The notes beneath the pieces were generated by a model that was given only the letters and a program-made list of their open reading frames with translations, was not told the origin of the DNA and made no database searches. The position numbers and the translations under genes are program-made. A DNA stretch of 64,000 bases from Candidatus Bathyarchaeota archaeon (GTDB lineage: Archaea > Thermoproteota > Bathyarchaeia > Bathyarchaeales > Bathycorpusculaceae), in contig CAVZIW010000010.1 of assembly GCA_963775465.1 (NCBI GenBank), positions 1 to 64,000 of the forward strand. The letters run 5' to 3'. Below, piece after piece: positions 42,433-47,500 of this stretch. Within the stretch, counting starts at the first letter, position 1. Each line of letters begins with the position of its first letter.

Positions 42433-44133
42433 CTACTTAGGTTGATTTCCCATTTTAACTCTTATTTGCGCCAGTTGCTCGTCAAGTTTTTCTTCGTCAG
42501 TTTCTACTTTGTGGAACAAAGGTATAGGTTTGGAGATTTTGTGCCCAGCTTCAACAGGTTTTAAAGCATCGAACCATTTTTCTTCGTGAACATTTCCATT
42601 GAGTTGCAAGGTTTGCCAAATCTGTTCTGCTGTTTGAGGCATAAAAGGCTCCGATAAAGTGGCTAAAGCCTTAACAACTTGCGCCGCAACGTAAAAGATT
42701 GAACCTGCTTTTTCCTTGTCAGTTTTCATCAGATTCCAGGGTTCTTTGGTATTTAGATACTGATTGCCTATTCGGCTTATTCCGATTAATGTGTTTGCCG
42801 CAGATTGTAGTCGGCAATCTTCAAGTTCTGTAGCGGCTTGTTCTACTTTTGTCTTTATCGTCTGTAGTAATGCCTCATCATCTTTGTCTATTTTGGACGG
42901 GGCTGGAATGTGCCCTTCAAACTTGCTGGCAATAAAAGAGAGAGTGCGGTGAATGAAGTTGCCGTATGTATCGTTTAAGTCTGCGTTAATTTTGTCGCTA
43001 AAGGCGCTCCATGTAAAGTTGGTATCCTTGCTCTCAGGGCGAGTCGCAATCAGGAAGAAGCGCCAATAGTCTACAGGGAACATTTCCAAAGCTTCGTCGA
43101 TCCAGATTCCGACTCGTTGGCTCTTTGAAGCTTTTTGACCTCTAAACTGAAGGAACTCAGTAGCAGAAACATTCCACGGCAAGTTATATCCTTGTCCTGA
43201 AGCCAGAAGGAGTGCTGGTAGAATTATGGTGTGGAAGGGTATGTTATCTTTGCCTACAAAATAGAGCGTTTTAGCATCTTTATCAAACCAGAATTTCCGC
43301 CATTTCTCCGGTTTTCCAAGACGTTGGCATTGTTCGATCGTTGCAGAAACATAACCTAGAACCGCATCAACCCATACATAGATGGTTTTTCCCTCTGCAC
43401 CTTCAAATGGCGCTGGGATGCCCCATTCGACGTCACGTGTTACGGCTCGGGGTTTTAAGCCTTCTTTTATCCAGTTTAAGCTAAAATTTTTAACATTAGC
43501 TGGCAACTGCTGATTTTCTCTGAGGTATCGAGTTAAGGGGTCAGCAAGTTTAGAGAGATCAATGTACCAGTGCTTTGTTGTTTTCACTGTAGGTTTACTT
43601 TTGCAGATCACACAGTACGGTTCAACAAGTGAAGTGGGTTCAAGGAGCTTGCCGCACATGTCGCATTGGTCACCACGGGCTTTCTCACAGCCACAGTAAG
43701 GGCATTTGCCTTCTACAAATCGATCTGGTAAAAATCGTTGATCATGGTCGCAATAGAGCATTTGGGTCTCTTTGCTTAATATATAGCCGTTTTGTTGGAT
43801 TTCAAGTAAAGTTTTTTGAACAAACTGTTTATGGATGGGGCTCTCTGTTGTTGTGTAATTGTCAAAGGATGCATTCCATTTATGGAAGAGTTCGGAGACT
43901 TTGGCGTGATTTTTGTCTGTTAGGGTTTTTGGCGTAATGCCTTGTTTAATTGCTTCAACCTCAATTGGTGTGCCGTGAGTATCAGATCCGCTAACCATTA
44001 GCACGTCACTGCCTTTGAGCCTGTAATACCTTGCTGCAACATCTGCCGAAAGGACCGATCCCACTAAATTACCAAGATGTGGCGTAACGTTGATGTATGG
44101 CCAAGCGGAGGTAACTAAAACTTTTTCTGGCAA
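42433..44133 (-). CDS. metG: Methionine--tRNA ligase
   Basis: AWPY...HLGN, SGSDTHG, Zn knuckles, YVWVDA, GKDNIPFH, KASKS; probable TTG start at 44133. Confidence 0.96.
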   Translation of the reverse strand: MPEKVLVTSAWPYINVTPHLGNLVGSVLSADVAARYYRLKGSDVLMVSGSDTHGTPIEVEAIKQGITPKTLTDKNHAKVSELFHKWNASFDNYTTTESPIHKQFVQKTLLEIQQNGYILSKETQMLYCDHDQRFLPDRFVEGKCPYCGCEKARGDQCDMCGKLLEPTSLVEPYCVICKSKPTVKTTKHWYIDLSKLADPLTRYLRENQQLPANVKNFSLNWIKEGLKPRAVTRDVEWGIPAPFEGAEGKTIYVWVDAVLGYVSATIEQCQRLGKPEKWRKFWFDKDAKTLYFVGKDNIPFHTIILPALLLASGQGYNLPWNVSATEFLQFRGQKASKSQRVGIWIDEALEMFPVDYWRFFLIATRPESKDTNFTWSAFSDKINADLNDTYGNFIHRTLSFIASKFEGHIPAPSKIDKDDEALLQTIKTKVEQAATELEDCRLQSAANTLIGISRIGNQYLNTKEPWNLMKTDKEKAGSIFYVAAQVVKALATLSEPFMPQTAEQIWQTLQLNGNVHEEKWFDALKPVEAGHKISKPIPLFHKVETDEEKLDEQLAQIRVKMGNQPK

Positions 44134-44306
44134 CCTAATCTCCAACAAACGGTTAAGTACCAACCTTATTAAAATTGCTATAATAAACGCAATGAGTTCA
44201 AAGTCGATTTTAACCTCTTTTACTGTGGCTGGGTATTTAAAAATCTTGGATTCTTTGGGAATGCTTAAATTTTAAAGTTACAATACCCGTAACTTGAGGA
44301 CTGCCT

Positions 44307-45442: not shown

Positions 45443-45682
45443 GTGAATTTTTTGGTACAAATAACTCGTCAACAACTCCAAGAAAACAACGGAAAAAATG
45501 GGAAACCAGCCTATGTTGCTTATCAAGGCAAAGTCTACGAAGTTACAGACAGTAGCTTCTGGATGGAAGGAGACCACCTAGGAATGCATGAAGCAGGCAA
45601 AGATTTAACAGAAGAATTAGAAATGGCGCCGCATAAAGACGAAAATCTTCAGAGAGTAAAATTAGTAGGTGACTTGGTTTAG
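45443..45682 (+). CDS. Cytochrome b5-like heme/steroid-binding protein
   Basis: NGKNGKPAYVAYQGKVYEVT, GDH, HEAGKDLT, APH. Confidence 0.88.
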   Translation: MNFLVQITRQQLQENNGKNGKPAYVAYQGKVYEVTDSSFWMEGDHLGMHEAGKDLTEELEMAPHKDENLQRVKLVGDLV

Positions 45683-46914
45683 AAAATGAAGTTTAGCACA
45701 GAATCAACTCTGTGCAAAGCTTCAAACACATTTTTTATGTCTTTAACACTCAAAGTTTCCCTTGTTTTGTAAAGTTCATTAACTGTTGTGTTCAGGCAAT
45801 CAAAGGCCGATTTTACGTCTAAATCGTTGTTCATATTGCGTTCAAAATCAACTTTTATTTTCTTTGTTGTCTCTTCATGTTTTGCATTTTCATTAGTTGC
45901 TTTTATTTCTGTTATCTCAGAAATCATTTTTCTGAAACTATCTAACATTTGGCTCGTTTCTGCTATCTTTTCATAAGTAAAATTCAGTTTTTTCCTATAG
46001 CATCCATAGATTAAGAAGAACCTCAATTGATCACCGCTAAAACCCTGAGTGGAAACATCGCTTGTATAGAGTACATTGCCTTTGCTTTTGGACATTTTTG
46101 CGCCATCAACAAAAAGATGACCGCCATGAAGCCAGTAGCGTGAAAACTGTTTTCCTGAACATGCCTCTGCAACCGCCAGTGTGTAGTCGTGATGTCTGAC
46201 CAAATTGTCAATTCCTCCGCAGGCAACATCAATAGAAAAACCCATTTGTTTTGTTACTATTGCTGCATCTTGAATGTTCCAAGCCGGTCTGCCTCTGCCA
46301 ATTGTTGTATCGTAGCAAAAATCTTCTCGGTCGCAGCCATGCCACAAAACAAAGTCGCCTTTATTCCAAGGTGTTCCAGGATAAGTATCCAAATGGAAGT
46401 GTCGTTTCTGTTTGGGCCATTTTGTAATGTCAAGGTGTGCAAGTTTGCCAAAACCACCGAACTTTAGGGGGTCATAATATGCGTTTTTTTTGCCATTGTA
46501 AGAGTACCAATAAGCATATCCATTTTCGAGAAGTTTAGAAATTAATTTGACTGATTGATCAACTGCTTTTGATGCTCTAATTGGGTAGGTTGGCTTTTTG
46601 ATTCTTAATAGCTCAAAATCTTTAAAAAAAACGTCTTCGTTTTTTGCTGTCAACTCTTCAACTGTCACTTTTTCTTTTTTAGCTTGTAAAATTGCTTTGT
46701 CTTCGATATCTGTTAATGTCATTAATCGCTCGACTTTGTAGCCTTGGTATTCCATGTATCGTTGGAAGATGTCTTCGAAAAGGAAGGTGCGGAAGTTCCC
46801 GATGTGGGCCCGTTGATATGTTGAGGGACCACACGTGTACATTTTGACCTTCATGTCTTTGGCTGGTTTGAACCCTTCAATTTTGCAAGTTAATGAATTG
46901 AAAATTTTCAGCAT
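45679..46914 (-). CDS. Cysteinyl-tRNA synthetase-like ligase (MshC-like architecture, altered active site)
   Basis: YTCGPSTY..AHIGN, TDIEDK, KMSKS, DALR-like helices; only 411 aa. Confidence 0.85.
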   Translation of the reverse strand: MLKIFNSLTCKIEGFKPAKDMKVKMYTCGPSTYQRAHIGNFRTFLFEDIFQRYMEYQGYKVERLMTLTDIEDKAILQAKKEKVTVEELTAKNEDVFFKDFELLRIKKPTYPIRASKAVDQSVKLISKLLENGYAYWYSYNGKKNAYYDPLKFGGFGKLAHLDITKWPKQKRHFHLDTYPGTPWNKGDFVLWHGCDREDFCYDTTIGRGRPAWNIQDAAIVTKQMGFSIDVACGGIDNLVRHHDYTLAVAEACSGKQFSRYWLHGGHLFVDGAKMSKSKGNVLYTSDVSTQGFSGDQLRFFLIYGCYRKKLNFTYEKIAETSQMLDSFRKMISEITEIKATNENAKHEETTKKIKVDFERNMNNDLDVKSAFDCLNTTVNELYKTRETLSVKDIKNVFEALHRVDSVLNFIF

Positions 46915-46923
46915 TTTTTGGTT

Positions 46924-47400
46924 TTACTCAGTTGGATTTTGTTCTTGTTCGATTTGTCTTAATGTATTTTTTGCTTCCTCGACGTGGCGTTCTGCTTTAG
47001 TTTGCGAAACAAAAACGTGTCGAACAATACCCTTCTTATCGATAATGTATGTTACTCGCCCTGGGATTATTCCCATAGTTGAAGGTACACCATACAGTTC
47101 TCGCACTTTATTATCCACATCTGCAAGAAGAATAAATGGTAGTCCGTAATGTGTGGCGAAGGATTTGTGCGATTCTACGCTTTGCCCGCTTACTCCAATG
47201 ACTTCAGCTCCTAATTCTGTCAGTTCTTCATAGTTATCCCTAAAAGTGCATGCCTCCTTGGTGCAGCCTGATGTTTCATCTTTAGGGTAAAAATAGAGAA
47301 CTATGTTTTTCTTGCCCAAATATTCTGAGAGAGTTACATTGTCCCCCATCTGTGAAGGAAGTGTGAAATCAGGTGCTTTATCTCCTGCTTTAACTTGCAA
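46924..47400 (-). CDS. bcp: Peroxiredoxin (BCP/PrxQ)
   Basis: GDKAPDF, YFYPKDETSGCTKEAC, GRVTYIID; TTG start after GGTGA. Confidence 0.93.
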   Translation of the reverse strand: MQVKAGDKAPDFTLPSQMGDNVTLSEYLGKKNIVLYFYPKDETSGCTKEACTFRDNYEELTELGAEVIGVSGQSVESHKSFATHYGLPFILLADVDNKVRELYGVPSTMGIIPGRVTYIIDKKGIVRHVFVSQTKAERHVEEAKNTLRQIEQEQNPTE

Positions 47401-47500
47401 AAAATCACCGAACAATATTGACTTTAATAGGCTATTATTGTTTTCGTAGATCAAAATCAAATGTTATAAATGGCAATGTGTATAGAAACATGGCGATTGT

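Follow-up and report, generated by a model that had tools for sequence, protein, structure and literature searches.

Paralogues of aminoacyl-tRNA synthetases that no longer read a tRNA have repeatedly been found to do new chemistry, such as MshC in mycothiol synthesis, GluQRS in the glutamylation of queuosine and CysRS* in recoding. MshC, the cysteine:GlcN-Ins ligase, derives from cysteinyl-tRNA synthetase (CysRS) and is the model for tRNA-independent acyl transfer. Here we describe another CysRS-derived paralogue, P0001, encoded in a stretch of 64,000 nucleotides from Candidatus Bathyarchaeota archaeon (assembly GCA_963775465.1, contig CAVZIW010000010.1, positions 1 to 64,000 of the forward strand), called the window below.

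CysRS* of some Desulfobacterales is the product of a second cysS, which has no anticodon domain, has an altered connective peptide 1 (CP1) and lies downstream of selC* and selB*; its proposed task is to load cysteine onto a special tRNA-Cys(UCA), according to the accessible part of the report on it (Mukai et al., Nucleic Acids Res 2016, PMC5389517). The accessible part of a review (PMC9437257) lists CysRS* and MshC as the only CysRS paralogues and describes GluQRS (YadB) as a truncated GluRS that glutamylates the queuosine of tRNA-Asp. GluQRS is an analogy only: it too is related to a class I synthetase, has no anticodon domain and acts on RNA, and it comes from a different parent synthetase.

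We suggest, with confidence only somewhat above even, that P0001 is an accessory member of an undescribed CysRS-descended family, which performs some joining reaction other than core translation and has a dispensable role in stress. No description of this family, recognized by its WN[IVL]QD and RHHDY motifs, was found in the literature.

The paralogue and its amino-acid pocket

P0001 (411 residues, ATG start) is encoded at 45679..46914 (-) and consists of the Rossmann core, CP1, the stem-contact fold and the helical bundle. The class I CysRS catalytic domain PF01406 covers its residues 15-320 (E 4.8e-74, Pfam). On the NCBIfam cysS model TIGR00435 it scores 309.0 bits, under the 340-bit cut-off, with positions 1-400 of the 466 profile positions aligned. 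The anticodon-binding domain corresponds to the last ~66 positions of that model and has no counterpart in P0001. Three full-length CysRS, one of them from the same genome, extend ~70 residues beyond it (alignment A1), and the AlphaFold2 model ends within the helical bundle, with helices to residue 407. Hence, profile coverage, alignment and model all bear out the absence of this domain, which the preliminary description of the locus had noticed.

The model was built on 34 family sequences and is confident, with a mean predicted local distance difference test (pLDDT) score of 93.0 and a predicted template modelling (pTM) score of 0.92. In the Foldseek search CysRS is the closest fold (8qhp, TM 0.89; 1li5 and 1u0b, 0.84-0.86) and MshC comes next (0.82-0.84); canonical CysRS is also the closest by sequence (8qhp, E 8.9e-61). 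ESM Atlas gives generic ‘class I tRNA ligase / CysRS / MshC’ clusters only. By these scores, the similarity of P0001 to the CysRS family, and that of its upstream neighbour to AhpC/TSA, is far beyond chance.

Coordinates of the motifs were confirmed by translation readback, and the residue numbering was fixed via the HMMER alignment of P0001 to E. coli CysRS (1li5). HIGN (residues 37-40, 46795..46806 (-)) represents the class I HIGH signature, KMSKS occupies residues 273-277 (46084..46098 (-)), and Cys28 (46831..46833 (-)), invariant across the family, is equivalent to C28 of the E. coli enzyme. All three had been reported as intact, and readback and alignment agree. P0001 also shares with canonical CysRS T68, W212 (W205 in E. 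coli), H241 (H234) and H242 (H235), as well as the four structural parts named above. Unlike canonical CysRS, it carries N213 in place of H206, Q215 in place of E208, D216 in place of C209, R240 in place of P233, D243 in place of E236, Y244 in place of N237 and T245 in place of E238.

These changes fall in two motifs, and both replacements are as first described. WNIQD (residues 212-216, 46267..46281 (-)) stands for the canonical WHIEC, and RHHDYT (residues 240-245, 46180..46197 (-)) stands for PHHENE. From the E. coli structure work we take C28, C209, H234 and E238 to be the zinc ligands of CysRS; two of the four, C28 and H234, are then retained in P0001, and the other two positions are occupied by D216 and T245. 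The equivalents of G29 and T68 presumably hold the alpha-amino group of the substrate, as in the same structures.

As judged from the alignments, the ATP-binding signatures, the alpha-amino residues G29 and T68 and the tryptophan lid W212 are retained, and the pocket is a fixed new arrangement. In it Cys28, Asp216 and His241 take the place of the Cys, Cys, His and Glu of CysRS, and N213, Q215, R240, D243 and Y244 are fixed around them. CP1 is rebuilt as well: its loop WPKQKRHFHLDTYPGTPWNKGDF (residues 166-188, 46351..46419 (-)) is basic, family-specific and presumably binds the acceptor.

Conservation and distribution of the family

The family was collected by a pattern scan of one genome per prokaryote species, which gave at least 595 matching stretches, at least 588 of them encoding a relative. 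The family is large, spans archaea and bacteria, is strongly constrained and has a redesigned metal pocket. The best 80 loci of the at least 588 were examined, and a further 80 loci came from a metagenome scan that started with distant members. Titles among the best 80 are Bathyarchaeia/Bathyarchaeota, Hodarchaeota, Methanoperedens, Methanocellales, Methanocella, Syntrophobacter, Desulfoferrobacter suflitae strain DRH4 (locus L094) and a few other bacterial bins.

WN[IVL]QD is found in 165 of 170 loci, one more reads WSIQD and four give no match. RHHDYx is found in 165 of 170 too, where x stands for T (74), N (59), V (19), S (8), I (3) or A (2). These loci span Bathyarchaeia, other archaea and Thermodesulfobacteriota. 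The remaining signatures are similarly frequent: xCGPS in 164 of 170 loci, H[ILV]GN in 165 of 170 and KMSKS in 147 of 170, with T/P/S/A-MSKS in 15 more. Failures are mostly split or truncated open reading frames (ORFs; L024, L089, L147, L174). In the 34-sequence alignment, which reaches down to 40% identity, C28, G29, P30, S31, T68, E71, W212, N213, Q215, D216, R240, H241, H242, D243, Y244 and the MSK of KMSKS are invariant, as are P167, D176, Y178, N184 and G186 of the CP1 loop. P0001 carries every one of these residues. Since position 245 varies freely (T/N/V/S/I/A), we conclude that it is not a ligand; D216, by contrast, is among the invariant residues.

Comparison of P0001 with 52 intact relatives gives a median nonsynonymous divergence (dN) of 0.24 and a median synonymous divergence (dS) of 2.7 where computable; dN/dS is at most about 0.1, with the caveat that dS is saturated. 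By these measures, the paralogue is intact and selectively maintained. The possibility, raised at the outset, that the substitutions are unconserved decay therefore fails, as each of the two motifs stands in 165 of the 170 loci and dN is far below the saturated dS.

A comparison with CysRS phylogeny had also been proposed. The tree has 143 rows, namely 122 of 150 library representatives (380-560 residues) and 21 family and own sequences, with no MshC row; it was built by a ‘quick’ LG+G4 method, so that its support is to be read with care, and it is unrooted and gives no order of events. The motif-bearing sequences form one clade of 27 of the 143 rows with a Shimodaira–Hasegawa-like approximate likelihood-ratio test (SH-aLRT) support of 99; this clade also includes P0129, with a scrambled mid-region, and the long-branch P0179. 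P0001 has all the features that define the family: GRP[AS]WN[IVL]QD, RHHDYx, xCGPS, a length within ~400-425 residues, no anticodon domain and a place in this clade. The branching within the family disagrees with the organism titles, for example for Methanocella- and Hodarchaeota-titled loci that lie inside Bathyarchaeia, which suggests transfer or mis-binning.

Two further groups of CysRS-like proteins were noticed. Short ones of ~405-417 residues (P0131/P0134, P0141, P0162, P0205/P0255) have no anticodon domain, keep canonical zinc motifs of the WHIEC/HHENE type and adjoin the WNIQD clade in the tree, on the canonical side. Such lineages could include CysRS* or other ligases. Others (P0176, P0252, P0261, P0251) read WHIED ... 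HHECE, with Asp for the Cys of WHIEC and with a Cys two positions ahead of the Glu ligand, which looks like a relocation of the zinc ligand.

The paralogue is an accessory copy. The window genome (2.42 Mb, 15 contigs, 92% complete) has a canonical cysS at G000:C11:63369-64754, which scores 505.9 bits on TIGR00435 as compared with 309.0 for P0001, and has nothing above cut-off for SepRS. P0001 had been called a paralogue before this search was made, and the name is justified, since it is not the sole CysRS of its genome. ARAGORN predicts 38 tRNAs there, among them one tRNA-Cys(GCA), and no tRNA-Sec or suppressor tRNA in a search that did not cover intron-bearing tRNAs. The same prediction contains a tRNA-Asp with the unusual anticodon ATC (G000:C15:42286-42357), possibly a false call or an odd tRNA.

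Every genome among 40 relatives has a canonical-type match, with ~33-38% identity to P0001. With paralogue-level matches taken at E <= 1e-100, 18 of the 24 genomes that belong to the same genus have the paralogue itself, in pieces with stop codons in the case of G021 and G022, and so does 1 of 16 genomes from other families of the same order. Copies broken by stops or frameshifts are G022:C6:14149-15380 (the same as L024), G021:C7:9933-10896 and L089:9989-11257, and the closest relative (86% identity) is among them. The paralogue and a canonical copy occur together in each of four other carriers checked (G041-G044). In the phylum of G041, 401 genomes were sampled, and 11 of them, counting G041, have the paralogue. 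It is dispensable and patchy in its distribution. Two of the four carriers, titled Syntrophobacteraceae, also have a third and distant match with 23-25% identity over nearly the whole query, in a frame of ~800 residues (G041:C53:233099-234313 and G042:C1:5026267-5027478).

Gene neighbourhood

In the window, P0001 follows the gene of a Bcp/PrxQ-type peroxiredoxin (46924..47460 (-); AhpC/TSA, PF00578, 5.2e-40), which contains a Cys-x4-Cys motif (YPKDETSGCTKEAC). The start codon of bcp is uncertain, with the Pfam match beginning at residue 26. Between bcp and the paralogue lie 9 nt (AACCAAAAA, 46915..46923 (-)), counted from stop codon to ATG. This spacer has the length given in the preliminary description, and no promoter- or terminator-like site was found in it, as a consensus scan of the spacer was not above the shuffled expectation. 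Because of this short spacer free of such sites, bcp and the paralogue are probably co-transcribed in the window clade. On the other side a convergent ORF for a cytochrome b5-like protein of 79 residues (45443..45682 (+)) overlaps the stop codon of the paralogue with its 3′ end.

Synteny was followed in 80 rows, consisting of the window and 79 genome loci, with L094 left out. The gene order of the Bathyarchaeia clade is methyltransferase > hydrolase < bcp > GENE < cyt-b5 < membrane protein, where GENE is the paralogue. Directly upstream bcp is present in 53 of the 80 rows, all from one Bathyarchaeia clade with at least 59% identity to P0001, and the cytochrome b5-like ORF is downstream in 55 of 80, in the same syntenic clade. 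In 10 rows of this clade bcp is absent and the hydrolase gene adjoins the paralogue directly; bcp is likewise absent from all 15 more distant genome loci (L082-L097 without L094). The best NCBIfam names for Bcp are ‘thioredoxin-dependent’ peroxidases and, given these names and the Cys-x4-Cys motif, Bcp needs no special thiol. The partnership with Bcp that had been proposed for the product of the enzyme is thus unsupported in that form: the upstream position of bcp belongs to one clade, is lost in part of it and is not found in the distant loci.

We also considered the hydrolase as a common partner. However, the best BLASTP segment between the alpha/beta hydrolase of the window and a bacterial hydrolase-OsmC fusion has 20 bits (E 0.048), and the two are not specifically related. 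Two genes downstream of the paralogue there is a MetRS-like ORF of 576 residues (42433-44163 (-)), with its matching cluster syntenic in 36 loci of the Bathyarchaeia clade; the MetRS-like call rests on the translation and on tRNA-synt_1g matches in the control set described below.

Outside this clade, neighbours of the 15 distant genome loci are mixed: fructose-bisphosphate (FBP) aldolase/phosphofructokinase (PFK), M48 peptidase, Lpd-like reductase, LonB, MTD/DinB, CNNM and cupredoxin/U32. An alpha/beta-hydrolase-OsmC fusion lies near the paralogue in 5 of 12 bacterial loci, directly upstream in L094, and CNNM is directly upstream in 3 of the 12; in L116 an Fe/Mn superoxide dismutase is two genes upstream. 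The metagenome loci give the patterns OsmC-fusion > HPF-CSD > CNNM > GENE and, in another archaeal clade, Dps < SDR < GENE > DinB, where Dps/ferritin and DinB flank the gene. Further patterns are DctM > aldo-keto reductase > GENE > FBP aldolase, MatE > GENE and GENE > PRAI-like. The HPF-CSD of the bacterial motif is a fusion of a ribosome hibernation factor domain (PF02482) with a cold-shock domain (L110:5379-5939, L180:3770-4297). The PRAI (TrpF)-like gene is below all NCBIfam TrpF cut-offs and lies directly downstream on the same strand in L094 and in three metagenome loci (L094:11258-11983, L160:5061-5789 and cluster 34).

For a comparison between lineages one locus was taken per 70%-identity group (69 groups), and 120 immediate neighbours were searched against Pfam next to a control of 120 genes at a distance of 4-6 genes (from 253 such genes 150 were drawn at random, and 120 of these were used). 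The neighbours include CNNM (6), Cyt-b5 (6), MatE (5), AhpC-TSA (5), FBP aldolase (4), Pyr_redox_2 (3) and OsmC (2), and AhpC-TSA, OsmC and Pyr_redox_2 are not among the control families with two or more members. In 4 of the 69 groups an Lpd-like class I disulfide reductase is located no more than four genes from the paralogue. On NCBIfam these four reductases are named dihydrolipoyl dehydrogenase (two of the four over cut-off), and mycothione reductase scores lower, below cut-off, for all four. A disulfide reductase of the NF004947 type occurs in 20 of 20 carriers and in 7 of 21 non-carriers among 41 relatives; this difference is confounded by kinship, follows the genus boundaries and carries little weight. 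Together, these neighbours weakly suggest a stress or redox neighbourhood across lineages.

Several points weigh against reading a stress function from this context. The neighbourhood is heterogeneous, with many unrelated genes (FBP aldolase/PFK, M48 peptidase, LonB, MTD, cupredoxin/U32, MatE, transketolase, UDP-glucose dehydrogenase). The five AhpC-TSA neighbours are sub-groups of one syntenic Bathyarchaeia clade and are not independent. Twenty-five of the 145 control families were listed, so that single control matches to these families are possible. The counts are raw, without a statistic, and the ‘stress’ category was set after looking at the data. Finally, no family member fused to another domain, which would have hinted at a partner, was found in a search for longer proteins (122 proteins with E <= 1e-30 among 4501 candidates).

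Proposed reaction and competing explanations

We suggest the following course of the reaction for an accessory, CysRS-descended ligase. ATP and an alpha-amino acid bound at the putative three-ligand Cys/Asp/His metal site would give an aminoacyl-adenylate. The amino acid would most likely be cysteine or a close thiol- or hydroxyl-bearing analogue. The acyl group would then pass to an acceptor selected through the rebuilt CP1 loop instead of an anticodon. The role of the enzyme would be a dispensable one in the stress response, outside core translation; we place it there because of the probable co-transcription with bcp in the Bathyarchaeia clade and the stress and redox genes nearby across lineages.

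Asp/Cys/His zinc sites which bind a substrate thiolate are known in protein prenyltransferases. A three-ligand site of this kind would leave one or two coordination positions for the substrate; owing to this room and to the prenyltransferase precedent, cysteine or a related thiol amino acid is the first candidate. A side chain with a hydroxyl or carboxylate group would fit as well, given the harder ligand set and the polar residues N213, Q215 and Y244. As to the acceptor, the invariant basic CP1 loop argues for a defined and probably anionic one, for example the end of an RNA or a metabolite with a phosphate or carboxylate group; that the loop would bind the acceptor is deduced from the discussion of CP1 in PMC5389517. 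The amine of a small molecule or a protein would be our first choice, short of an even chance, closely followed by an RNA 3′ end or a modified base; thioester or dinucleotide chemistry with no dedicated acceptor would come third, as a still sizeable share.

A more specific proposal is that the family makes an as yet undescribed amino-acid conjugate (for example a low-molecular-weight thiol, or else a cofactor, an RNA or a protein that carries cysteine), which would act against oxygen or peroxide stress in anaerobic archaea and bacteria, with the Lpd-like reductase and the adjacent peroxidases as partners. In this form the proposal is doubtful. To our knowledge, no dedicated redox thiol has been described in Bathyarchaeia and many other anaerobes. 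If the enzyme does build a redox thiol, or marks RNA or protein under stress, a real gap would be filled, and the question is testable at the bench, as the carrier locus L094 is titled Desulfoferrobacter suflitae strain DRH4.

Among the alternatives, the one that survives best, at a low probability, is an RNA-dependent enzyme that reads no anticodon, as CysRS* or GluQRS/YadB, and attaches its amino acid to one particular tRNA or to some other RNA. A CysRS without the anticodon domain can charge tRNA when its CP1 is altered, for which the accessible part of PMC5389517 gives the precedent. The rebuilt, invariant and strongly basic CP1 loop fits such an enzyme, as do the stem-contact and helical-bundle domains retained in the AlphaFold2 model and the solitary position of the gene outside any biosynthetic operon, which is frequent for translation-related genes. 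However, MshC has the same helical domains, so that keeping them is not diagnostic. ARAGORN detected no tRNA gene in 16 of 17 family loci scanned; in the exception, L087, a single tRNA-Leu(CAG) lies upstream. Within the 64-kb window the sole tRNA, a tRNA-Ser, is 29 kb from the paralogue. In the genome there are also the single tRNA-Cys(GCA) and, as far as ARAGORN without an intron search can tell, no tRNA-Sec or suppressor tRNA.

In general terms CysRS* and the paralogue are alike, each being a second cysS copy that has no anticodon domain and a changed CP1, and relatives of sulfate reducers are among the carriers of both. Unlike CysRS* as described, the paralogue has no linked tRNA gene, its carriers are mostly archaea and its cysteine pocket is remodelled; the two are set apart here by description, not by sequence. 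No EF-Tu/SelB is among the 25 families listed for the 120 immediate neighbours, and no direct search for selB was made. Since no tRNA gene is linked to it, the paralogue does not look like CysRS*.

An explanation that follows the preliminary description is a tRNA-independent ligase of the MshC type. It would couple a sugar or another amine with cysteine or a similar thiol amino acid and so make a new low-molecular-weight thiol used with Bcp. We regard it as unlikely. Its architectural part stands: both MshC (TIGR03447; 3c8z, 8hfm) and the paralogue are CysRS-derived proteins of ~410 residues without the anticodon domain, and MshC ranks second by fold. Peroxiredoxin, OsmC and Lpd-like disulfide reductase neighbours in separate lineages, and the NF004947-type reductase of the carriers with its confounding by kinship, also speak for this explanation. 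Descent from MshC, however, did not hold. P0001 scores 184.4 bits on TIGR03447 with a cut-off of 485.1; in the search of the whole genome the canonical cysS, with 243.2 bits, stands above the paralogue, with 185.8, so that the latter is no closer to MshC than the housekeeping enzyme. For MshA the window genome has 12 matches of the glycosyltransferase family 4 (GT4) type, the best of 140.7 bits and none over the 462.5-bit cut-off, and there is no MshB/LmbE-type match at E <= 1e-5 in this 92%-complete genome; MshD was not searched. Therefore, the likeness to MshC is one of architecture, not of descent.

As to distribution, no record of Actinomycetota is among the best 80 loci listed; the family is found in archaea and Thermodesulfobacteriota. 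The MshC cut-off was also reached by none of 10 short CysRS-like representatives. Furthermore, the neighbours of the gene in the lineages examined include no recurrent glycosyltransferase, deacetylase or acetyltransferase, bcp adjoins it in one clade only and is lost from part of that, and Bcp itself appears to be thioredoxin-dependent. A basic CP1 loop of the WPKKKRRF type would also be unexpected for a neutral sugar acceptor.

A back-up CysRS, charging ordinary tRNA-Cys and, for example, less sensitive to oxidation of the zinc-thiolate site, is very improbable. The retained Cys28, His241, Trp212, Thr68, HIGN and KMSKS and the stress-linked neighbours fit it. On the other hand, the anticodon-binding domain and two of the four zinc ligands are lost, CP1 is rebuilt, the score is below the cysS cut-off, and close relatives in which the gene is broken or absent all retain the canonical gene. 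A decaying or non-catalytic relic, suggested by the broken copies in G021, G022/L024 and L089 and by the absence from 6 of the 24 genomes of the genus, is hardly credible for a full-length copy with every family-invariant residue, a dN far below dS, ATP motifs conserved across domains of life and a confidently predicted structure.

Last, we note the proteins that the search for longer CysRS matches did return. The best has 36% identity, and they are canonical-type CysRS joined to PALP or family 2 glycosyltransferase (GT2) domains. In P0280-P0377 (~724-754 residues, some named Dehalococcoidia, Chloroflexota or SAR202) a CysRS-type catalytic domain is combined with a GT2 domain (PF00535), which could be a one-protein route to a sugar-cysteine thiol. 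In P0132 and P0272-P0277 (~764-776 residues, named Nanoarchaeota or Woesearchaeota) CysRS is combined with PALP (PF00291, cysteine synthase-type), and this would place cysteine synthesis and tRNA charging in one chain.

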